Below are positions 9,946 to 54,512 of a DNA stretch of 64,000 nucleotides, in pieces. The notes beneath the pieces were generated by a model, which worked only from the letters and a program-made list of their open reading frames with translations, did not search any database and had not been told where the DNA came from. Location of the stretch: NCBI GenBank assembly GCA_030770535.1, contig JASVEC010000015.1, positions 806,001 to 870,000 of the forward strand. Direction: 5' to 3'. How positions within the stretch are numbered: position 1 is the stretch's first letter; the number at the start of each line of letters is the position of its first letter. This stretch comes from Batkoa obscura (lineage: Eukaryota). The position numbers were made by a program, and so were the translations under genes.

Positions 9946-10407
9946 TGCGAAATATCGCTTTGTTAGCTCCATAATTGATTATAATATAATAACCACTTGA
10001 GTTGTTGTGTTCTCAAGTTTAGAGACAATCAATCCCATGTTCTTAGTTTGATTTGCTATGAGGATTTCTAGCTCCATCCCAAAGAATATTATCTTCTCAT
10101 TTTGATATTTCTATTTTTCAGAGTATAAAAGAGTTTACAGAGTATAGTAGTTCGAGGCTTTTTAACTAATTATTCTTTGATATCTCGAACATTTAATAAA
10201 GCCACTAAGGTTTCTTAATAGTATCTTACATAGATTTACATTAGTATTGTCTATTCTATTTGTCTTATATAGCTTGTAACCTATTACGTGCTATTCTTTA
10301 TAATTCAAGTTTATCTTAGTCACATAAACTAAGACCTTTCGACTTATAGTGTAGTCAACCCAGCAATATTTGTTCTTGACTCCAAACCCTGAGTATCAGA
10401 TTTCATA
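9946..10407 (+). mobile_element. solo-LTR-like element, chimeric (subfamily II-like start, subfamily I body)
   Basis: TGCGAAATATC...AGATTTCATA; TATAAAAG near 10124 and AATAAA at 10195; no TSD; abuts a truncated MITE (~9865-9945). Confidence 0.85.
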
Positions 10408-10681
10408 GAATGATAAAAATTCCATTTTAAGCTAATCAATAAAAAAAAAGGTGTATAATATTTCAGTTTTGAAAATTTTAGTTGTTATGTAAAAAAATTA
10501 ACACCATGAAATAAAAGTCTATCACATTTTATTGATTGATAAAATAATTTTGGAATGAGCAAGCTTGTAACAATTCTATGAAATGCTTTTAAAAACAATT
10601 AAATTTATTCTAAGATTAATCAAAGGAATAAAGATCATCCTAAATTATAAATATAATATAATACCAGTAAGTGTCAACTAT

Positions 10682-14305: not shown

Positions 14306-14767
14306 TGTGAAATCTGGTACTCAGGGTTTGGAGTCAAGGACAGCTATTGCTGGGTTGACTACACTATAAGTCGAAAGGTCTTAGTTTATGTGACTAAGAT
14401 AAACTTGAATTATAAAGAATAGCACGTAATAGGTTACAAGCTATATAAGACAAATAGAATAGACAATACTAATGTAAATCTATGTAAGATACTATTAAGA
14501 AACCTTAGTGGCTTTATTAAATGTTCGAGATATCAAAGAATAATTAGTTAAAAAGCCTCGAACTACTATACTCTGTAAACTCTTTTATACTCTGAAAAGT
14601 ATCAATATCAAAATGAGAAGATAATATTCTTTTGGATGGAGCTAGAAATTCTCATAACAAATCAAACTAAGAACATGGGATTGATTTCCTCTGAGCTCGA
14701 GAACACAACAGCTTAGGCGATTGTTATGTTATAATTAACCATGGGACTGACAAAGCGATATTTCACA
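14306..14767 (-). mobile_element. solo-LTR-like element, subfamily I
   Basis: TGTGAAAT...ATTTCACA; 5-bp TSD GTTAT/GTTAT. Confidence 0.88.
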
Positions 14768-16524: not shown

Positions 16525-16985
16525 TGTGAAATATCGTTTTATTAGCTCCATGGTTGATTATAACATTATAATCACTTAAGTTGTTGTGTTCTCGAGTTTA
16601 GAGATAACCAACCCGATGCTCTTATCTTGATTTGTTGTGAGAATTTATGTCATATGACTCCGAAGGATATTGTCTCCCTGTTTTGATACCCATACTTGTT
16701 GGAGTATAAAAGAGATTTTAGAACGTAGTAGCTCGAGATTTTTGAATTATTCTTTGGTATCTCATGTATTTAATAAAGCTACTAAATTTACTTAATAGTA
16801 TTTTACATGGATTTTACGTTAGTATTGTCTATTCTATTTGTCTTATATAATCTGTAGCATATTACTTATTATTATTCATAATCTAAGTCTATCTTAGTCG
16901 CATAAACTAAGACCTTTCGACTTACAGTATAGTTAATCAAGCAATGACTGCTTTTGACTCCAATCACTGAGTACCAAATTTCACA
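16525..16985 (+). mobile_element. solo-LTR-like element
   Basis: TGTGAAATAT...AATTTCACA; 4-bp TSD TCAT/TCAT; TATAAAAG followed by AATAAA. Confidence 0.88.
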
Positions 16986-19530: not shown

Positions 19531-21039
19531 ATGAACTATATATCTATTTTATATTATTATTTAACTTTATCTATAGTAAAAGGAGACTATGCTATAGAAT
19601 CTGGGGATAACTTTTTAACTACGAATGATGGACAACCGGTTGACAATAATCAAAACTTATTAACTATTGGTGAAGATGGTCCAGCTTTATTACAAGATTT
19701 TCAATTTGTTGAAAAAATGGCTCACTTTGATAGAGAACGTATCCCTGAAAGAGTTGTGCATGCTAAAGGATCGGGTGCCCATGGGTACTTTGAAGTCACC
19801 AAAGATATTACTAAATACACTATGGCTAATCTAATGAATAAAGTAGGAAAGCGTACTCCTGTATTTACAAGATTTTCAACAGTTGGACAAGAAAGTGGAT
19901 CAAGTGACACAGTAAGGGATCCCCGAGGCTTTGCAGTGAAGTTTTACACAGAGGAAGGAAACTGGGATTTAGTTGGAAACAATTTGCCTGTTTTTTTTAT
20001 TAGGGATGCTACCAAATTTCCTGACTTTGTTCATACTCAAAAAAGACACCCCCAAACTGGTGCCGGAGATGCTGATATGTTTTGGGATTTCTTATCTCTT
20101 AGTCCGGAATCAATTCATATGGTTACTTTCTTATTTGGAGACTTAGCTTTACCTGATGGTTACCCTCACATGAATGGGTTTGGTGTACATGCCTACAAAT
20201 TAGTTAAAGATAATGGGGATTGGAATTATGTAAAATGGCACTGGGTTACTGAGCAAGGAATTAAGAATTTAACAGTAGAAGATGCTGCAAAGTATGCTGG
20301 AAGCCAAAAAGATAGAGATCGCTTAGGATTATTTAATACTATCAAAGACGGTAAATTCCCAGCATGGAAATTAATGATGCAAGTAATGAGCCCTGAGCAA
20401 GCTAAAAAATTTGGTAAAAGCGCAGTGGATGCTACTAAAATCTGGCCAGAGGATCAATTTCCATTGCAGGAAGTAGGAAGGATGGTATTAAATCGAAATC
20501 CTGAAAATTTCTTTGCAGAAACTGAACAAGTAGCTTTTTGCCCAGCCCACATTGTACGAGGATTTGATTTCTCAGAAGATAAATTATTAATGGGTAGGAT
20601 ATTCTCATATACTGATACTCACCGCCATCGTCTTGGTACAAATTATTTACAATTACCTATCAATCGTCCAAACAGTACCGTATTAAATCATCAAAGGGAT
20701 GGCCAAATGGCTTTCCATAATTTTGGAAATAAACCAAACTATGAGCCAAATTCTTATAATTATGGACGTCAAACAAATAAACCAAATTATGCTAATGTTA
20801 AGTATGATGGTAAAATGGGAAGATACTTGAATAAAGTAACGATAGATGATTTCAAGCAAGCCAGAGATTTATATCAATCTCTTGATAAAGGTCAAAAGGA
20901 TAGATTAATTATGGCTATTTCAGATCATTTAAAAGATGCCAAAGCATTTATTAGAAGTCGCCAAATTGAGATCTTTAAGAAAGTTGATAAAGACTATGGA
21001 CAGAGAGTTGAAGAACAAATCAAGAAGTTATTGAACTAA
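19531..21039 (+). CDS. monofunctional small-subunit heme catalase with a predicted N-terminal signal peptide
   Basis: FDRERIPERVVHAKG (distal His), VGNN (Asn), RIFSYTDTH (proximal Tyr); N-terminus MNYISILYYYLTLSIVKG/D; no introns; no PTS1. Confidence 0.96.
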   Translation: MNYISILYYYLTLSIVKGDYAIESGDNFLTTNDGQPVDNNQNLLTIGEDGPALLQDFQFVEKMAHFDRERIPERVVHAKGSGAHGYFEVTKDITKYTMANLMNKVGKRTPVFTRFSTVGQESGSSDTVRDPRGFAVKFYTEEGNWDLVGNNLPVFFIRDATKFPDFVHTQKRHPQTGAGDADMFWDFLSLSPESIHMVTFLFGDLALPDGYPHMNGFGVHAYKLVKDNGDWNYVKWHWVTEQGIKNLTVEDAAKYAGSQKDRDRLGLFNTIKDGKFPAWKLMMQVMSPEQAKKFGKSAVDATKIWPEDQFPLQEVGRMVLNRNPENFFAETEQVAFCPAHIVRGFDFSEDKLLMGRIFSYTDTHRHRLGTNYLQLPINRPNSTVLNHQRDGQMAFHNFGNKPNYEPNSYNYGRQTNKPNYANVKYDGKMGRYLNKVTIDDFKQARDLYQSLDKGQKDRLIMAISDHLKDAKAFIRSRQIEIFKKVDKDYGQRVEEQIKKLLN

Positions 21040-30685: not shown

Positions 30686-30783
30686 AGAGATGTTTTTTTG
30701 GCTTCTTTACTCTTTCTATCCTTTAAGCGCTATTTGAGTGGAAAAACTATTAACAAAATTCTCAAACACAAAAATACATCCTC
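30686..30783. mobile_element. ~97-bp MITE
   Basis: AGAGATGT...ACATCCTC; TSD TAAT/TAAT. Confidence 0.85.
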
Positions 30784-30959
30784 TAATAGTAATTGTTCTA
30801 TTTTGAAGTATTTTATTAAGCTATTTTAAACATGTTATTTTTTAGAAAGTAAACTATATATTACTTAAATATGTTTATTTATTTCATATATTATTTTATA
30901 AAATTATAGCACACTAAAGTATAATTATTAAAAATTAAGCAAAAACAACAACAAAATAT

Positions 30960-33398
30960 GGGGTTGTCTGAATTAGTTTCATTATTTTATCCAATTTTTG
31001 AAAAATTTTGTATTTTAAAAACTTCGCTTAAAATTCTATAAAATCACATCTTTTATTAAAACAAAAGTACCCAAACACAGTTCTAAATCATTCTATTATA
31101 GCTCATACTGTAAGTTAGTTGAATTTCTACTAGATCTTAAATACATATTCTTATAAAGCTTAATTGAGAAATATTTATTATCAACCGCTTTATAACCAAC
31201 ATTGTAGATTTATTATCAAATAAATAAACTATTTTAATGTTATAATTACATTATTAATATATTGCCAAGTTAATAAATAGCTGCATGGGAGGGAGTGGTT
31301 AGCCCCAAAACTATAATTAACCATCCCTATATAGTACAAGTAATAATAGTTTTTACATATTATTACAGTTACTTGTTCTTTGACTATTTATTAACTTAGA
31401 TATTAATAACTTAAGTAATCCTAACATTTAACAATCTATTTCTATCATTCAACAAACTACTTACTTGCTTAGTAAATATCGAAAATTTTAAATTCTCTGT
31501 TATCTTCGTAAGGTAAGCTGGGATCGATCTTTTAATTTTTCTGTTTTCTATAGACTCTATAACTTTAATTGGGACTATATCGCTTTTTTTTGATGTATCA
31601 GATACTGGATAACAATGTAGTTTATTGTTATGTTTAATAAAGTGTAAATACTTCTTAATGCCCTGCATCTCTATTATTCTTTTTGTATTTTTGTTTCTTT
31701 TATACTTTTTAAAAATTATATCTGTTTTCCCATTATTAACAGTCGAGTTATTAATTTTATTATGCTCGCAAATAAAAGCCTCAAATCTTGAAATTAATTG
31801 ATCGATATCTTCTATTTTACCTAACGCTTCAAAACTACTTTTCCATTTTGAAAGGTTTCCAAAATGTCCATCAACTATACTTTTTCCATGATGCTCAGCA
31901 AAAAAATTAAGATTAACATTCAAACTACTATTTATTTTATGAATTTCTTTAAACATATAGTGTAGAAACTCTTGGGATCTAAAATGATTTCCTGTATCTG
32001 CCCATATATTAATTTTTGTAAACTTTTTAAATAGAAGCTCTGTAGAGATTAAATCGATTAAACAATCTCCTGCATATGCTGAATCATGATTCAATATTTC
32101 AGATAAATAATCAAAGTAAACTTTGCCTATTGTTTTATCATCTTTTAAATATAATACACCAAAACCTAATACTGATATAGCTTGTTTATTATAATGATCT
32201 AGATTTATTGAATCTGGTCTTGTCCCTATTTCCATATTTTGTTTGAAATCTAAAACTATTATACAACTTTTGTTATTTAATTTTTTGATAGTTTCATTAA
32301 ATGTGTTTTTTTGAGTATCAACACAGAATTTATGTAATTTGTATAATTTTTCTTCTTCGTTGAAAATTTCTTGTATCTCTGCTTTGTTTTTTGCTGTATT
32401 TATTTTATTTTCAAATAACTTTTTTCTAACTGTATACTGGGTACATATATTACATAGATCCGTTTTTCTTGCTGGATTTTTGAAATTAGTTGGTATATAT
32501 TTAAAGAACGTTGACCTAGCTACTGCTTTATCTCTTAGATCATTCAAATATTTACTATATATCATTCTTCTACTTTTATTTAATATATATATATTATCTG
32601 ATGAATATTTACTATCGTTACTTTTTTTATTAAATCTTGATGAAATAGTTGAATCATTTAGTAAATATTGTATGATAGTTTCAATTTGGTCATCTTTAAT
32701 TTTTTTTGTATTTTTAATAATAGGTTTTAATGTTGATATTTTATTATTATTACTTGTTTTTGAATAATCGTATTGATTTCTATTTATATTAAACCCAAAA
32801 CTCTTACATTCATCAAAAGAATATACTGAAGCTATAGTTGATAATAACGCTACTTGCTGACTTTTGTTTCCTGTTTCCCTTAAAGCACTAATTTTATACA
32901 TTACTTGATTAAGTTTATTATTATCGATAGTAAACTTTGATAATATATCTTTTCTTTGTTTTGTTTTATTATAAAATTCCATAAACCTTGGGTTGTTATA
33001 AGTAGCTCTTAAAATTGATGTAAATGAATTACAATGTTTATATTGTGTACTCCTCCCTATTGTATTGAAGTTTTCAAAAATTCCATTTCGAAGTTTAGTT
33101 ATGAAAGTTTGCATTTTATTTTTATTTCAACAAAAAATAAAGTCAAATAAGTGTATTTATATAATTATATAATCATATAGTTATATATTATATATCTGTT
33201 AAATATCTAACAGAACTAACATAAAATATATAGTTAGGAAAATTAGCTATTTAAGAAAAGGAAACAATTAAAATAAGTTTTAAATAGAGACATTTAATTT
33301 TAGGCTTTTTAGATTTAACCGTTATATTGAACACAAACTTGGAATTTTAAATTTGGATTAATTTCTAAGTAGATTCTGAAACCAATTAGGACAGCCCC
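30960..33398 (-). mobile_element. full-length, putatively autonomous Sola2-like DNA transposon (2439 bp)
   Basis: Left TIR GGGGTTGTCTGAATTAGTTTCA vs reverse complement of right end GGGGCTGTCCTAATTGGTTTCA (18/22); ATAT at 30956-30959 and 33399-33402; encloses an intact transposase ORF. Confidence 0.85.
31411..33114 (-). CDS. DDD transposase, Sola2-like
   Basis: Uninterrupted 567 aa; RSTFFKYIP, KTDLCNIC...H (CxxC-H); candidate catalytic motifs VLDFKQN, WADTGNHFRS, FFAEHHGKSIVDGHFG. Confidence 0.82.
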   Translation of the reverse strand: MQTFITKLRNGIFENFNTIGRSTQYKHCNSFTSILRATYNNPRFMEFYNKTKQRKDILSKFTIDNNKLNQVMYKISALRETGNKSQQVALLSTIASVYSFDECKSFGFNINRNQYDYSKTSNNNKISTLKPIIKNTKKIKDDQIETIIQYLLNDSTISSRFNKKSNDSKYSSDNIYILNKSRRMIYSKYLNDLRDKAVARSTFFKYIPTNFKNPARKTDLCNICTQYTVRKKLFENKINTAKNKAEIQEIFNEEEKLYKLHKFCVDTQKNTFNETIKKLNNKSCIIVLDFKQNMEIGTRPDSINLDHYNKQAISVLGFGVLYLKDDKTIGKVYFDYLSEILNHDSAYAGDCLIDLISTELLFKKFTKINIWADTGNHFRSQEFLHYMFKEIHKINSSLNVNLNFFAEHHGKSIVDGHFGNLSKWKSSFEALGKIEDIDQLISRFEAFICEHNKINNSTVNNGKTDIIFKKYKRNKNTKRIIEMQGIKKYLHFIKHNNKLHCYPVSDTSKKSDIVPIKVIESIENRKIKRSIPAYLTKITENLKFSIFTKQVSSLLNDRNRLLNVRIT

Positions 33399-33402
33399 AT
33401 AT

Positions 33403-33500
33403 GGGAATGTATTTTTATGTTTGAGAATTTCATTAATAATTTTTCCACTCAAATAGCACTTAGAAGATGGAAAAAGTGATAAAGCCAAAAAAATATCACC
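33403..33500. mobile_element. ~97-bp MITE abutting the Sola element
   Basis: Shares ATAT 33399-33402 with the transposon end and ATAT 33501-33504 with the next MITE. Confidence 0.9.
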
Positions 33501-33504
33501 ATAT

Positions 33505-33603
33505 GAGAGTGTCTTTTTTGACTTCATTATTTTTTCTATTTTTTAAGCGCCATTTAAGCGGAAAATTTGTTGGTAAAATTCTTAAACACAAAAATACATC
33601 CCC
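33505..33603. mobile_element. ~97-bp MITE, GAGAGTG subfamily
   Basis: GAGAGTGT...ACATCCCC; ATAT/ATAT. Confidence 0.9.
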
Positions 33604-34240: not shown

Positions 34241-34699
34241 TCAATGAGGAAACTAGTCAAAGTTAATTAAATTTATTACATGAGGATGCGTTTTTGTGTT
34301 TAACAATTTTATCAACAATTTTTTCACTCAAGTAGCACTTAAAAGATGGAAAAAGTAATGAAGCCAAAAAAAATCTATAAAATAAATAGTAGTTTAAATT
34401 TAAATTTTTTTACTGAGTATTATAAAAAATATATACCAATAGACATTTTAAAATCTTTTATAATAAAAAAGTAGCTTTGAAACATTAAGTAAAATAAAAA
34501 ATACTAATTAATTTATTTCAAAATTTGATATTTTTATTACAAACATAATAATAAATTAGCAAAACTTAATATAATTCTAATTGAAATTATAGAGTTTATA
34601 AAAAACGAAAAAATTGAAAAACTAATCCCAGTTTACCTTATAAAAATAGCAGAAAATTTGAAAGTTTTGATATTTACTAAGTAGTTTATTAAATGATAA

Positions 34700-35192
34700 A
34701 GGCCAATTATTAATGGCTAAGTTAATGGATAGTTAAAAATCAAGTAGTTGTAATAGTAAACAGAAGTTATTATCATATTGCTTATATTATATAAGTATAG
34801 TTATTTATTAACTTAGTAGTATACCAATAATGTAATTATAACATTAGGATAGTTTATTTATTTAATAACAAATCTGCAATGTTGGTTATAAAGTAGCTAA
34901 TAATAAATATTTTTTCAATAGAATTTTATGAAAATATGTATTTACTTACATACTAAAACTTTGATTAATATCAATATATAGGTTATATTATTAAAAGCCT
35001 TGCTAACCCAAGAATTTCTACTAAGTTTAGTAGAAATTCTGCTGATTTATACAAATTATAATAAAATAATTTGAAACTGTGTCAGATACTTTTGCCTTTT
35101 AATAAAAAATTTCTTATAGAATTTTAAGCAAGTTTTTAAAGTATATAGAGTATTTAAAATGGACGAAAAATGAGATCAATTTGGACATCCCC
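34700..35192 (+). mobile_element. decayed 3'-terminal fragment of the Sola2-like element, inverted relative to the intact copy
   Basis: Reverse-complement similarity to 30960-31410; ends TGAGATCAATTTGGACATCCCC-ATAT. Confidence 0.8.
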
Positions 35193-39038: not shown

Positions 39039-39658
39039 ATTGACAAATTTATTAAAAGAAAGAAAGACAAAATTTAGACTATTGACTAATTTTTTCTTAG
39101 ATAGTTCTAATTTGGATTGCTATTACCATAAATAATCTTATATAATAACAGATGTCATTTAACTGGGATAATTTGAAAAACAGATAGGGATATCCGAATT
39201 GATTTCATTTTTTCCTAATTTTTAAATTTTTGATTAAAATTACATTATTAATATATTATTATAGCTACTTAGTTTATTATATTATTATTTCAAATATAAA
39301 ACACTAAATTTTAATACTAATGTAGCTTATCTATTGGAATAGTTTAAATTTATTAAATCTGACTTCAATTTTTATATTTTATTTAAAATTTAAAATTATA
39401 GCACATTTTTATCATTTGATTAAAATAAACTTGTAAAATATACATAATAGTTAAGCAAATTATATAAAAATTAATAATTAATATAATTAAAAAATAATTT
39501 AATTTAATTTAATTAAATATATCAAATTTAAAAATATGTTTAATTTTAATAATAAAATTACATAAATCTAAATTGAGTTTATTATAGAAACTATAATCAT
39601 ATTAATTGTAGAAATATAATAGTAATTATATCACAATTTAGATAATTATAAATTATAT

Positions 39659-40244: not shown

Positions 40245-40705
40245 TGTGAAATCTGGTACTCAGTGGTTAGAGTCAAAAGCAGTTTTTGGTTGATCAGCTA
40301 GTCGTAAGTCGAAAGGTCTTAGTTCATGTAACTAAGATAGACTTGAATTATGAATAATAACATGTAATAGACTATAGACTATGTAAGACAAATATAATAA
40401 ATAGTATTACTGTAAAATCTATGCAAAACACTATTATAAAGATTTAATAGCTTTATTAAAAGTATAATACTGGGGAATGATTCAACTAAAAAGCCTCAAG
40501 TTATTATGTTGAAGAAGATCTTTTATACTCTAAGTATGAATATCAAAATGGAGAGATAATATTCTTCATGATATGAAGTTAGGGATTCTCGTAGTAAACC
40601 AAAATAAAAGGTTCGGGACTGATTATATCTGAACTCAAGAATATAACGACTTAAGTGATTGTTATATTATAACCAATCATAGAGCTAACAAAGCAATATT
40701 TCACA
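40245..40705 (-). mobile_element. solo-LTR-like element, subfamily II
   Basis: TGTGAAAT...ATTTCACA; near-exact inverted copy of 42004-42463; no TSD. Confidence 0.88.
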
Positions 40706-41306: not shown

Positions 41307-41765
41307 TGTGAAATCTGGTACTCAGGGTTTGGAGTCAAGAACAAATATTGCTGGGTTGACTACACTACAAGTCGAAAGGTCTTAGTTTATGTGACTAAGA
41401 TAGACTTGGATTATAAAGAATAGCACGTAACAGGTTACAAGCTATATAAGACAAATAGAATAGACAATATAATGTAAATCTATGTAAAATACTATTAAGA
41501 AAACTTAGTGGTTTCATTAAATGTTCGAGATATCAGGGAATAATTCAGTTAAAAAGCCTCGAACTACTATACTCTATAAACTCTTTTATACTCTGAAAAG
41601 TATAAATATCAAAATGAGATAATATTCTTTGGGATGGAGCTAGAAATTCTCATAACAAATCAAAATAAGAATATGGGATTGATTTTCTCTGAACTCGAGA
41701 ACACAACAGCTTAGGCGATTGTTATGCTATAATTAACCATAGGACTGACAAAGCGATATTTCACA
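41307..41765 (-). mobile_element. solo-LTR-like element, subfamily I
   Basis: TGTGAAAT...ATTTCACA; 4-bp TSD CTAG/CTAG. Confidence 0.9.
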
Positions 41766-42003: not shown

Positions 42004-42463
42004 TGCGAAATATTGCTTTGTTAGCTCTATGATTGGTTATAATATAACAATCACTTAAGTTGTTATATTCTTGAGTTCAGATACAATCAGTCCCGAACCT
42101 TTTATTTTGGTTTACTACGAGAATCCCTAACTTCATATCATGAAGAACATTATCTCCCATTTTGATATTCATACTTAGAGTATAAAAGATCTTCTTCAAC
42201 ATAATAACTTGAGGCTTTTTAGTTGAATCATTCCCCAGTACTATACTTTTAATAAAGCTATTAAATCTTTATAATAGTGTTTTACATAGATTTTACAGTA
42301 ATACTATTTATCATATTTGTCTTACATAGTCTATAGTCTATTACATGTTATTATTCATAATTCAAGTCTATCTTAGTTACATGAACTAAGACCTTTCGAC
42401 TTACGACTAGCTGATCAACCAAAAACTGCTTTTGACTCTAACCACTGAGTACCAGATTCCACA
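42004..42463 (+). mobile_element. solo-LTR-like element, subfamily II
   Basis: TGCGAAATAT...AGATTCCACA; no TSD. Confidence 0.88.
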
Positions 42464-46963: not shown

Positions 46964-47423
46964 TGTGAAATATCGCTTTGTCAGTCCTATGGTTAATTAT
47001 AGCATAACAATCGCCCAAGCTGTTGTGTTCTTGAGTTCAGATACAATCAGTCCCGAACCTTTTATTTTGGTTTACTACGAGAATCCCTAACTTCATATCA
47101 TGAAGAACATTATCTCCCCATTTTGATATTCATACTTAGAGTATAAAAGATCTTCTTCAACATAATAACTTGAGGCTTTTTAGTTGAATCATTCCCCAGT
47201 ACTATACTTTTAATAAAGCTATTAAATCTTTATAATAGTGTTTTACATAGATTTTACAGTAATACTATTTATCATATTTGTCTTACATAGTCTATAGTCT
47301 ATTACATGTTATTATTCATAATTCAAGTCTATCTTAGTTACATGAACTAAGACCTTTCGACTTACGACTAGCTGATCAACCAAAAACTGCTTTTGACTCT
47401 AACCACTGAGTACCAGATTCACA
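46964..47423 (+). mobile_element. solo-LTR-like element, chimeric (subfamily I start, subfamily II body)
   Basis: First ~65 bp match the 41307-type end; remainder near-identical to 42004-42463; no TSD. Confidence 0.88.
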
Positions 47424-47816: not shown

Positions 47817-48465
47817 ATATTATGAATAATTATAAAGCTGGTAGAACGATCTTTTTTAATAATAAAGTATTTGGTACAAGGTTACATTTTAATAATGTTA
47901 AATATAATTATAATGTATGGTGATGTCCAAATTGATTTTAGAATTTAGTTAAAGATTAATCCAAATTTTAAGTTTTTAAATTTATGAGCCCTTAATATAT
48001 GACTGTAAGTTTGAGAAGCTTAAAATCATATATTTTCTACTTAAAAAATTTATTCCAATTGTTTTGTTTTTTTATACGATTAAAAAAAATAACCATATGG
48101 CTTATACTACTTTTATTAAATATTTGATAGATATATAATATATTTATATATAGTTATTTGACTTTATTTTTTATTGAAATTAAGACGAAACCCAAACTTT
48201 TATAGTTAAACTTCGAAATGGAATTTTTAAAAATTTTAATATAATAGGGAAAAGCACATTATATAAGCGTTATAATTTATTTGTATCAATTTTAACAACT
48301 ATTTAAAATAACCCAGAGTTTATGAGGTTTCCTAATAAAAAAAGTATAATTAAAGTTTATTATTATCAATAATAAACTTAATCAAGCAATGTATAAAATT
48401 AGTGTTTTAAGGGAAATAAAAAATAAAAAGAGTTAGCATTATTATTAACTATAGCTTCAGTATAT

Positions 48466-48564
48466 GGGGGTGTTTTTTTTGGCTTCATCATTTTTTCCAT
48501 CTTTTAAGCGCCATTTGAGCGGAAAAATTATTAGCAAAATTCTTAAATACAGAAATACATCCCC
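48466..48564. mobile_element. ~97-bp MITE inserted in transposase remnant
   Basis: The intact element's empty site reads GCTTCAGTATATTCTTTTG; here ATAT is duplicated around the MITE. Confidence 0.95.
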
Positions 48565-48722
48565 ATATTCTTTTGGTGAATGTAAAAGCTTTAGATTTAA
48601 TATAAGTAAAAATCAATATGATTATTCAAAAATAAGTAATAATGGTAATAAAATATTAACGTTACAACCTATCATTAAAAATACAAAAAAAACTAAAGAT
48701 GAACAAATTGAAACTATTATAC

Positions 48723-48821
48723 GAGAGTGTTTTTTTTGACTTCGTTATTTTTTCCATTTTTTAAGCGCTGTTTAAGCGGAAAATTTGTTAGTAAAATTCT
48801 TAAACACAAAAATACATCCCC
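48723..48821. mobile_element. ~97-bp MITE, GAGAGTG subfamily, at the deletion breakpoint
   Basis: Flanks differ (ATAC/ATAA). Confidence 0.9.
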
Positions 48822-49376
48822 ATAAGATAATGATAAAATAATTTAAAGCTGTGTCAGGTACTTTTGCTTTTTAATAGAGAATTTATTTTTATAGAATTTT
48901 AATCAAAGTTTTAAAGTATAAAATTTTTCAAAATTAATGGAAATGAAACTAATTCGGACACCTCCATATTTAAAAAGTAAACTAATTTTTATAAAAACTT
49001 TTTTTAAAAAACAATAACAAAAAATATTAGTTTCTATTAGCTGATAAAAAATATAAAAAAATTAGAAATTAGATATAAAAGTTTTATTAATATAATATTA
49101 TAACTTATAATAAACTATTAATAGATTCTTATCAGCTTTTGATCAATTATATTAAATTATAATAATAATAATATAAGGATATTTTTTTGATTTCATCACT
49201 TCCATTTTTTAAGTGTATAAACTTTTTACAATTTAATTTGAAACAAAAAAGCTATCTGTTCATTTTTTTTAGTATTTTTAAAATTTTTGGTTAGCTCTAT
49301 ATATAGTAAGGTTTGAGATTGAAGCATTGATCTAAAAACACTAGTTTATTTATTGGTAACAGAATAGCTCTTAATC

Positions 49377-50951
49377 TTAAGAAGTGCCATTAGGGTTAGG
49401 TGTAGTAATGACATCTTTAAAGCATTCTTCAACTAAGTTGAAAGGCTTGCTTGTAATAGATTCTTCTAAGTAAGCTTCAAAACCACCAATAAGATTCAAT
49501 TTCTTATCTAAAAAGTTCAAGAAGCTAGTAAGTTTACAGGTACCATTACACCAAGAAGTTATTAATGGGTTTCCATTATAAAAAGCTCTCAAATGGAATT
49601 GGTCTAAATCTTTAGAAGTGCAATCCTTCTTCCACAACTCAAATTGCATGTTGGAAGAGTATGGTGGCCAGCGCATATCGGTGGCATTGATAGCACCTAA
49701 CAATGGAATGATGGAGGTATCATGGGCGGAGTAATAGTACAATTTCTTTAATTCACCCATTTGTTTGATGCTACTATGATTATAATCAACAAGTTTCTTA
49801 CTATCAATGTTCTTAGCAACGTGGGATAATAGAGTACGCTTCATTTCTAATAAAAAGGCACCCATTCTTAATTTAGCTAAGCTTGGGAATTGGTGTTCAT
49901 TATCACGGAACAATAAACGATATTGAGTATTTCCAGCAACCATAGTGTTATCAATAATCTCTTGGGTAACGCATTTGGAGCCATCTTTAAGGTTACAGAT
50001 AGCTGGCATTTTATGGCAGGTTCTAGCCTGTAAGATATCAGTGAAATAAGCAAAATCATAGGCTTTAGCGTATTCTACACGCTTGGTAGTATTGCTATCA
50101 ACTACAATTGATAAAAAGTTTTTTCTATCAACTAAAGTCTGATTTAATAACTTTTGCATTGGGACGGATTCACGTACTTTTAACTCCAAGTTTGCTAAGT
50201 TAGGACAATTCTTTGGGTTAGGTAAAATGTATTCAGTTTCAGTTGGTAAAGAATAGATAGGTAATTCGTACTTTTTGAACTGTTGAGGAGTAAATTGTTG
50301 GTTATAATTATATGGGAACATACCCGACATTAAAGAGATAGCAGATTGATGTGTACGCCATACATCAGTAGCTCTAACAAACACATCCTTCTTGGCTGAG
50401 TGCCAGTCTTTGTTTAAGAATTTCAGTTGTTCAATGTAGATTTTATTTAAGTTTTGGCCCAACTTAAATTGATAAGCCATACCCTTAGGTGTCAATTGGC
50501 CGGTGGAACAGCTACCTGGCCAGTATAGGCTGGAGTAAGGGTTTAAACTACAGTAGTTAAATGGGGAATCGGCAGGATTACAACTGTTCTTAAAATATTT
50601 AGTACTTTGAACAAAGGTTACGTTGTGGACATGGGTTTGTTCTAAAGCACAATTCCAGGCATCTTTCTCATGACCTTGTGGTAAATAATTGATAGGAGTA
50701 CGATCACCATGACGTCCCATCCATATGGTAGTGATTAATTTACCATCTTTAAACTAAAGTATAAAAATCAATTAATTTATGTTACTTTTGTTACTATTTA
50801 ATTGAATTACCAAAGGTTTGTAAGTTTCAGGGTTTGGTAAACCAGCTTCACAGTAAGTGTATCCACCTGTAAGTTGATCAGATGCAGGTGCATCAAACTC
50901 AGCGTTAACTAATACTAAACTAGTTAAAATTAAAAGGTTGTTAACCAACAT
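49377..50951 (-). CDS. secreted histidine acid phosphatase (branch 2), 1 intron
   Basis: ATG 50949-50951, signal peptide MLVNNLLILTSLVLVNA; intron 50754-50810; RHGDRTP and SAHDT motifs. Confidence 0.92.
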
Positions 50952-51741: not shown

Positions 51742-53316
51742 ATGTTAAATTTACTTTTACTATTAGCTGTTGGCGTAGTAACCAGCAACTACCCAGGTTA
51801 TGAGAATGACAAACTTGATGGCTACAACTATTGTGAAGCTGGACTACCTAATCCAGACACTTATCAGCCAATGGTAAACTTTGATTAGCAACTTAAAAGT
51901 ATAAAATCTAATTTTAGTTAGTTTAAGAACGGTAAGTTACTTACATCGATATGGATGAATCGTCATGGTGATCGTACGCCTTACAATATGCTCCCAGAAG
52001 GGTATGAAAATGAGCCATGGAGCTGTGCTTTGGAACAATCCCATGTTGATAACTTAACATTCAAACCAAGCACCAAATACTATCAAAACAGCTGTGACCC
52101 TAATGTCTCTCCATTCAATTATTGTAGTTTGAACCCATACTCCAGTTTATTCTGGCCTGGAAATTGTTCCGCTGGTCAATTAACTCCAAAAGGAATGGCC
52201 TACCAAGTTAAATTAGGACAAAACTTAAAAAAGATTTATCATGAAAAGACAGGTTTAATTCAAGAAAATTGGTTAGGAAATCAAAAAGATATCTTAGTTC
52301 GTGCTAGTGACGTTTGGCGTACCCATCAATCCGCTATCTCTTTAATGTCAGGTATGTTTCCATTCAATTATAACACTCAATTTGATTCAGCTCAATTCCG
52401 AAATTTGGAATTACCTATCTTTACCTTACCAGCTGAGATTGAATATATGGTTCCTAACCCAAAGAATTGTCCAAATATTGCTATTTTGGAGAAAAAAATT
52501 ACACAGTCAAAAGCAATGAAAGAGTTATTGAATTTCACTTTACCTGATCGTAAACAGTTCTTAGATATGGTGTACGACTCAAACAGTACCAGAAAGTTTG
52601 AGTATAACAGAGCTTTTGATTTCTTTTATTTTACTGATATTTTCCAAGTTCGTAAATGTCATAACAAGAAAAACATCTGTTCAAAGAGAGATCCTACTAA
52701 CTGCGTTACCCCAGCTATGGTTGATAATACCATGATTGCCTCCAATGGACAATACCGTATCATGTATCGTGACAATGAGGCTCAATTCCCATTATTAGCT
52801 AAGTTAAGAATGGGTCCCTTTTTATTAGAAATGAAACGTAAGTTTTTGGCTCATATTGCCAATCTCGAGAAAAGTGATAAAATCATTGACTTCAACCATC
52901 CTGCTTATTCAATGATGGGTCAATTAAAGAAGATCTATTACTATTCTGGCCATGATACCTCAGTTACTCCATTACTAGGTGCCTTGAACTCTACTGAAAT
53001 GCGCTGGCCACCTTATTCTTCAAACATTCAATTTGAATTATGGAAAAAGGATAGCAAGAAGTGCAAGAGCAAAAATAGCATCTTGAATCAATATTTTATT
53101 CGCATGTTTTATAATGGCAAATCTTTAGTTACTTCTTGGTGCCCAGAGTCCGGCTGTTCCATCCATAAATTTTTAGGCTATTTAGATAATGACTTGGGAC
53201 TTATTGGTGGGTTTGAAGCTTACTTGCCAGAATCAGTTAGAAATAAGCCTTTCAATTTGGTTGAAGAATGCTTTAAAGATGTCATTACTACACCTAATCC
53301 TAATGGTACTTCTTAA
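51742..53316 (+). CDS. secreted histidine acid phosphatase (branch 2), 1 intron, paralog of the adjacent gene
   Basis: ATG 51742, signal peptide MLNLLLLLAVGVVTS; intron 51874-51921 at the same position and phase as in the paralog; RHGDRTP and SGHDT motifs. Confidence 0.92.
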
Positions 53317-54041: not shown

Positions 54042-54512
54042 TGTGAAATATTGCTTTGACAGCTCTATGATTGATTATAACATAACAATAACTTAAGCTG
54101 TTGTGTTCTCAAGTTCAGTGACAATCAATTCAGAGTCCCTTATTTTTATTTTTTCCGAGAATTTCCAACTTCACATCACTAAGAATACTACTCTCTCGTT
54201 TTCATCCTCTCGTTTTGATATCCATACTTGTTGGAGTATGAAAGAGATTCAACATAATAACTCGAGGCTTTTTAATTAATTATTCGTTGATATTGTACCT
54301 TTAAAGCCAATAAATCTCTCTGATAATATTTTACATAGATTTTGCAATAGTGTCATCTATTCTATTTGTCCTACATAGCCCATAGCCTGTTATATGCTAT
54401 TGTTCATAATTCAAGTCTATCTTAGTTACATAAACTAAGACCTTTCGACTTACGACTAATTAATCAACCAAAAACTGCTTTTGACTCTAACCACTAAGTG
54501 CCAGATTTTATA
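54042..54512 (+). mobile_element. diverged solo-LTR-like element, subfamily II
   Basis: TGTGAAATAT...CCAGATTTTATA; 4-bp TSD AAGT/AAGT. Confidence 0.85.

Follow-up and report, generated by a model that had tools for sequence, protein, structure and literature searches.

This locus raises two questions: whether a 2,439-bp unit in the genome of Batkoa obscura is an intact DNA transposon of the Sola2 group, and whether it drove the spread of the MITEs found beside it. The window, as the term is used here, is the whole stretch of 64,000 nucleotides that was analysed. We are confident that the unit is an intact, multi-copy Sola2-group transposon with a predicted DDD cut-and-paste transposase and ATAT as its insertion site; its lineage likely mobilised the 99-bp MITEs. 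The limits of the element were set as follows:

30956..30959, no strand: left target-site duplication, ATAT, beyond which other copies diverge
30960..33398, minus strand: full Sola2-type DNA transposon, 2,439 bp, delimited by its ORF, its ends, other copies and homology
30960..30981, plus strand: 3' TIR, downstream of the transposase, beginning GGGG
33377..33398, minus strand: 5' TIR, upstream of the transposase, beginning GGGG on the minus strand and assigned by end pairing
33399..33402, no strand: right target-site duplication, ATAT, common to the element and the adjoining MITE

The two TIRs paired at 18 of 22 positions (20/26 and 21/30 when the compared windows were extended), enclosing 284 bp upstream and 451 bp downstream of the transposase ORF, and the length, the imperfect TIRs starting with GGGG and the flanking ATAT given in the original prediction were all re-found. 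A chance test for pairs of ends starting with GG, matching at 18/22 or better, flanked by identical 4-mers and lying 2-3 kb apart retrieved three pairs in the real window, namely the Sola2-type element and two MITE-MITE pairs, and none in all 30 Markov shuffles of it. Sola2 termini follow the rule 5'-GRG, and GGG was found at both ends of the element and also in a metagenome relative described below. The ATAT duplication has the 4-bp length of Sola target sites and the AT-rich AWWT form of those of Sola2. TIRs of 22 bp and a size of 2.4 kb lie within the ranges of 11-1,124 bp and 2-9 kb given for Sola elements, along with a DDD transposase of RNase H fold, in PMC10741241. The suggestion that these TIRs are unusually short was therefore dropped, since published Sola2 elements also have short ones: PMC3627910 (2013) describes social-amoeba Sola2 elements with TIRs of 12-13 or 21 bp and with AWWT or ATAT/AAAT/ATTT duplications.

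The coding capacity of the element is confined to one protein, whose features are listed here with the residues discussed below:

31411..33114, minus strand: transposase ORF, 567 aa, intronless, with an N-terminal helical region, a CxxC...H motif and an RNase H-fold core at residues 273-467
32332..32454, minus strand: C221-x2-C224 ... H261 motif, predicted zinc site, at least 90% conserved in 86 aligned proteins
32248..32250, minus strand: D289, predicted first catalytic Asp, in strand 283-296 of the model's secondary structure; invariant in 86/86
31996..31998, minus strand: D373, predicted second catalytic Asp, at the end of strand 367-372 of the model; invariant in 86/86
31870..31872, minus strand: D415, predicted third catalytic Asp, within HGK-x3-D and at the start of helix 413-431 of the model; at least 90% conserved

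The frame runs from 33114 to 31411 without a stop and needs no intron, in agreement with the uninterrupted 567-aa ORF predicted originally, and the motifs quoted for it lie at residues 221 (CNIC), 289 (DFKQN), 371 (WADTGNHF) and 408 (HHGKSIVDGHFG). No second long ORF was found within the TIRs, save an antisense frame overlapping the transposase. A Pfam search with the 567-aa protein gave no match, and searching a representative protein library gave 1,103 clusters at E <=0.001, 150 of them listed. The query and 85 library relatives were aligned (86 proteins), revealing that D289, K291 and D373 are invariant and that C221, C224, H261, H377, F378, H409, G410, K411 and D415 are conserved in at least 90%. 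The Pfam family DUF7869, also the nearest named Atlas family, weakly matched 13 of the 86 aligned proteins. One homolog from outside the window (P0002) weakly matched the Pfam family Intein_splicing (E 3e-4), probably by chance.

No solved structure was matched by a sequence profile of the transposase, and its fold was examined in a predicted structure (mean pLDDT 89). In the model the first core strand carries D289, while D373 closes a later strand and D415 opens a helix, which is the usual arrangement in RNase H-type enzymes. Foldseek returned IstA as the best match (E 2.8e-5), and the best VIA-align superpositions were on SIV integrase (142 residues at rmsd 2.8, Z 11.3) and on Mos1 (168 residues at rmsd 3.5, Z 10.9), a comparison that bears on the RNase H core and barely covers the N-terminal half. 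The transposase is thus predicted to fold as an RNase H domain of the integrase/mariner type, and the model and the conserved residues together correspond to the DDD transposase with RNase H fold of the Sola superfamily. The CxxC...H residues would bind zinc, and the N-terminal helical region is likely the DNA-binding part.

Placement within Sola2 was approached through homology and motifs. The transposase aligned by BLASTP with a library protein, P0107 (29% over 372 columns, E 5e-32), whose core, compared by eye, matches that of DFa-2, a published Sola2 transposase, and through it the element is linked to a transposase classed as Sola2. The closest Sola2 elements are DFa-1/2/3 of Dictyostelium fasciculatum and PPa-1/4/5 of Polysphondylium pallidum (Bao & Jurka 2013, PMC3627910), and they share with the fungal element a DFKE-type first Asp, HC/HD-S, W-x-D-x3-HF[RK], HGK-x3-D and CxxC...H, together with short imperfect TIRs and an AT-rich 4-bp duplication that may be ATAT. 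They differ in being several kb long and carrying Fanzor1, whereas the fungal element, at 2.4 kb, has the transposase alone, without the Fanzor1 cargo gene of the Sola2-Fanzor composites, and has a MITE family. In one outside example, a metagenome relative (L001) 30% identical to the query, the element measures 2,814 bp, its 18-bp perfect TIR starts with GGG and ATAT lies on both sides; it was the only one with clear TIRs among the 17 metagenome loci examined of 27. Because this example and the published elements share them, the ends and the ATAT target look like traits of the branch. Further copies of L001's own TIR flank it (L001:1-62 and 2841-2904) and share ATAT with it, a stacking like that seen in the window.

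The second comparison group is animal Sola2 (Sola2_HM, _AAe, _SP and _BM in the supplement of PMC3627910, and the profile in PMC5751038), which has in common with the transposase a DF[AS]ENY register, an HD/HN middle motif and an F..SHGK...D third Asp. The Sola profiles of PMC5751038 were compared by consensus letters, covering Sola2 from its start to the lead-in of the third Asp, two stretches of Sola3 and the last 16 rows of Sola1. The region of the first Asp (gDfae...qdevqs.hw) and the Ffatsh lead-in to HGK followed Sola2 in register. By contrast, the glycine-rich loop after the first Asp differs, and the second-Asp motif carries HF[RK] where animal Sola2 has QYK, one residue nearer to the second Asp; the animal-type SDG-x3-QYK is absent from the query and Q[YF]K occurred in 1 of 130 cores. 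Sola3, Sola1 and DUF7869 belong to the same DDD RNase H class, and Sola3 has the same shorter spacing at the second Asp. However, the first-Asp motif of Sola3, d.aqkvlP in the profile of PMC5751038, is replaced by DFKQN or DFKEN, and instead of the kfle.pGHs through which Sola1 reaches its third Asp in the same profiles (GHS/T, last 16 rows), the query has FFAEHHGK. Retroviral integrases, Mos1, IstA and Sleeping Beauty resemble the transposase in the RNase H catalytic fold (Z 8-11, predicted structure) and differ in sequence, with only 8-14% identity. Solved DDE/D enzymes have different duplication lengths.

These deviations allow the reading that the branch marked by DFKEN, WSDxGxHFR and EyHGK is a Sola subgroup of its own, standing beside animal Sola2 as its sister and not within it. 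The second-Asp motif departs from the Sola2 consensus sDgcaaqykn and its spacing recalls Sola3 (rsd..GcYhs), the 1,103 clusters make for a large branch, and a 2017 profile survey (PMC5751038) reported one fungal Sola2 although it included Conidiobolus coronatus, which carries a relative. We nonetheless hold a separate subgroup to be rather unlikely, because the describers of Sola placed DFa-2 and PPa-1 in one alignment with animal Sola2 and named both Sola2 (PMC3627910), and because register with Sola2 is kept around the first Asp and ahead of HGK. Judging from one BLASTP alignment to a by-eye match and from the motifs, the element is a Sola2 in the sense in which its describers used the name, in a short-TIR branch. 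The Sola2-type DDD transposon originally proposed thus gained support from the homology, the motifs and the predicted fold.

The closest relatives of the transposase were broken gene models of Neoconidiobolus thromboides (63-90%), a species that also holds a more distant subfamily (P0025, 60%). Thirty homologs were looked up, and those named came from N. thromboides (4), Smittium angustum, C. coronatus, Ramicandelaber brevisporus, Monocercomonoides exilis and the plant Thalictrum; the last (P0015), on a 1.9-kb contig, groups with fungal-side proteins, and contamination or transfer is possible. Motif scans for animal-type Sola2 and Sola3 references in viral contigs found none, and the transposase tree was consequently built without an outgroup. 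In this tree, a quick search of the 130 of 168 proteins containing both core motifs, one group of 38 rows (support 91, long branches) united Neoconidiobolus, Conidiobolus and Smittium proteins, and Ramicandelaber and P0107 fell elsewhere. Pattern-limited searches confirmed no relative among 131 candidates in viral contigs or among 37 in prokaryote genomes. The catalase gene of the window (19531-21036) had its best named matches in Massospora (71%) and Entomophthora (70%); together with the N. thromboides relatives of the transposase, this marks the host as an entomophthoralean fungus.

The statement that Sola elements are little described in fungi agrees with the literature found. PMC5751038, the 2017 survey of 1,730 fungal assemblies, reports a single fungal Sola2, in Aspergillus flavus, and none in Conidiobolus, Smittium or Ramicandelaber, where relatives were now found; PMC11075540 places Sola-2 also in Rhizophagus irregularis. 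The word 'Sola' is absent from the main text of PMC10515909, on entomophthoralean repeats, and beyond PMC5751038 we found nothing on Sola transposases in Zoopagomycota. A fungal branch of Sola2 thus appears to have been overlooked so far. The novelty lies in the host range among fungi and in having a compact, intact, high-copy element together with its MITEs, the Sola2 branch itself having already been described.

Copy number and state were assessed in public sequencing runs. The element stretch or part of it was contained in 20 of the 24 runs listed, 13 of them with half its words or more, and seven (X1, X2, X3, X5, X6, X8 and X15) were compared in detail. Three runs from three studies contain the host flanks, at depths of about 459 (X2), 47 (X6) and 20-36 (X8). 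Summed depth over the element was 300 to 1,200 times that of the host flanks, a value inflated by overlap between short contigs; a more cautious minimum comes from a 97-nt contig of X6, whose depth is 114 times that of the single-copy flank and from which we infer a family of about 100 or more copies. Loose ends just beyond the left ATAT were found in 10, 10 and 9 contigs of X2, X6 and X8, X8 gave 5 such contigs just beyond the right ATAT, and contigs in X1 and X5 begin exactly at 30956. Other copies thus part from the window sequence exactly outside ATAT, whereas limits other than these TIRs and their 4-bp duplication would have told against the original prediction; together with the element's own flanks, these copies support the preference for ATAT that it proposed. 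A single-copy left contig of X2 matches 30726-30955 and its last 30 letters depart from the element's start, the neighbouring contigs matching to their ends, which gives just a hint of an empty site with the flank running into the MITE at 33403; X6 and X8 had no cover at 30820. Deletion derivatives were also seen, such as a 34-bp loss at 31551-31586 in X2, at roughly 11-fold single-copy depth, and, in three runs, a join of 32978 to 33376.

X3 and X15, which may be RNA runs, carry host genes, and their cover of the element could stem from trace DNA of a multi-copy element; X1 and X5 hold element and MITE pieces at low depth and no long host pieces. Horizontal transfer into the many organisms under which the runs are labelled was rejected on these seven runs, low-level presence of the fungus accounting for X1 and X5. 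Among the runs listed with the element, none is on record as RNA.

Between the copy in the window and the majority of copies there are a few dozen differences at most. Among those listed (at least 15), 7 are silent, 5 replace an amino acid and 3 are non-coding, and it could be argued from the five amino acids altered among the 12 listed coding differences, and from the broken state of the copies in N. thromboides, that this copy is an intact-looking relic, dead or silenced, or a domesticated transposase gene. Such a reading seems to us improbable. All the residues conserved in the family are kept, none of the five replacements falling on one; 7 of the 9 listed transitions are silent against an expected fraction of 0.33 (p 0.008, among the differences listed); the TIRs and the duplication are intact; and domestication is countered by the many near-identical copies.

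The relation of this intact transposon to the MITEs was examined with the related pieces of the window:

33403..33603, no strand: stack of two 99-bp MITEs at about 33403-33501 and 33506-33603, with ATAT at the junction
34367..35192, plus strand: decayed remnant of an older related subfamily, with the 3' end GGGGATGTCC, an ATAT flank and a partial MITE inside; 68-75% identity to the element
39234..39421, minus strand: small decayed transposase fragment, 72% over 163 nt
47919..48965, plus strand: internally deleted older copy with both ends and two MITEs (48466-48564 and 48723-48821); 72-88% identity

A profile of the MITE family, about 99 bp long, gave 36 matches covering about 5% of the window. 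After two short partial matches were dropped, 54 of 68 MITE ends were recognisable, with ATAT at 36 and a sequence one base off at 11 (background 1.5%). In 13 copies, compared without the outer 8 nt and including three copies with no end-B signal, MITE end A resembled the 5' end of the element (mean z 2.73) and end B its 3' end (2.65), the crossed comparisons giving 0.22 and 0.26. This end-by-end resemblance points to descent of the MITEs from the element's lineage. The same 13 copies had a mean identity of 83% (range 71-96%), and, the MITEs being more diverged than the element family, most of their spread would predate its last expansion. Moreover, positions 9-15 of the MITE TIR are a T-run, where all five transposon ends compared have a motif containing AATT. 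Divergence and the mid-TIR difference together make the lineage, rather than this copy, the likely driver. The idea of a MITE burst driven by this element accordingly fits its lineage, with which the MITEs have ATAT and end-specific homology in common, better than this particular copy.

Which member of the lineage moved the MITEs was then weighed. Their spread may be the work of an older or a sister Sola2 subfamily alone, the element family having target and ancestry in common with the MITEs without moving them; their divergence exceeds that of the young family, their start, GGGGATGT, is identical to the terminus of the older remnant (at 35192) and not to GGGGTTGT or GGGGCTGT as in the element, they lie inside the older copy at 47919-48965, and a subfamily of 60% identity exists. 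The more distant N. thromboides subfamilies (P0025) could indeed be the true partners. Against an exclusive role of such a subfamily, MITE ends also join the interior of element copies at least 94% alike, with exact ATAT at 5 of 10 places (6 of 10 with the majority allele), indicating that MITEs were still moved while or after the element family spread, and the inner end motifs are common to MITEs and element, end by end. We regard the exclusive role as possible though doubtful, and lean slightly towards the young element family itself moving MITEs.

Direct observation covers the termini with their 4-bp duplication, the uninterrupted frame, the residue conservation, other copies that end at ATAT, and MITE ends that match the 5' and the 3' end of the element each in its own right, and a mechanism can be proposed by analogy with DDE/D chemistry. 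The helical N-terminal part would bind the short TIR and the inner motifs GTTT.AGAAT (5' end) and GTTTCATTA (3' end), and the three Asp residues would hold two metal ions. Judging from the fold class, the enzyme would cut the ends and join them to ATAT in a reaction staggered by 4 nt, repair then duplicating ATAT. The MITE likely arose long ago from a sister subfamily, by a deletion that kept both ends, and would have been moved in trans by transposases of the element family over a long period. The stacking of the element and two MITEs at 30960-33603 would follow from the fresh ATAT sites that every insertion leaves at its flanks.

A broader claim, namely that the DFKEN branch, with its short TIRs and ATAT target, forms a large and distinct subgroup of Sola in Zoopagomycota and protists that profile surveys missed, with a member still transposing, variable between strains and moving MITEs, is speculative and probably too strong as a whole; if true, a compact intronless member that still transposes would be a ready test case for the chemistry of Sola transposition. 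Members of the branch occur in four or more zoopagomycete genera, and, since no Pfam model exists for it, fungal repeat libraries likely leave it and its MITE family unclassified. A limited literature search, which is weak evidence, found no transposition assay for Sola; a 2.4-kb intronless element with 22-bp TIRs and a strong 4-bp target preference offers an easy substrate for such an assay and for structural work.

Another repeat family, some 460 bp long and with ends TGTGAAAT...ATTTCACA, was found at 2503-2964, 9946-10410, 14306-14767, 16525-16985, 40245-40705, 41307-41765, 42004-42463, 46964-47423 and 54042-54508, plus weaker copies. Some pairs are 95-99% alike and several copies have 4-5 bp duplications of varied sequence (CTTT, GTTAT, TCAT, CTAG); they look like solo LTRs or an unrelated MITE, with no tie to Sola seen. 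Finally, the window holds a divergent pair of paralogous genes at 49377-50753 (minus strand) and 51922-53316 (plus strand), 73-77% alike in stretches and carrying an RHGxRxP motif, which we take to be likely histidine acid phosphatases.
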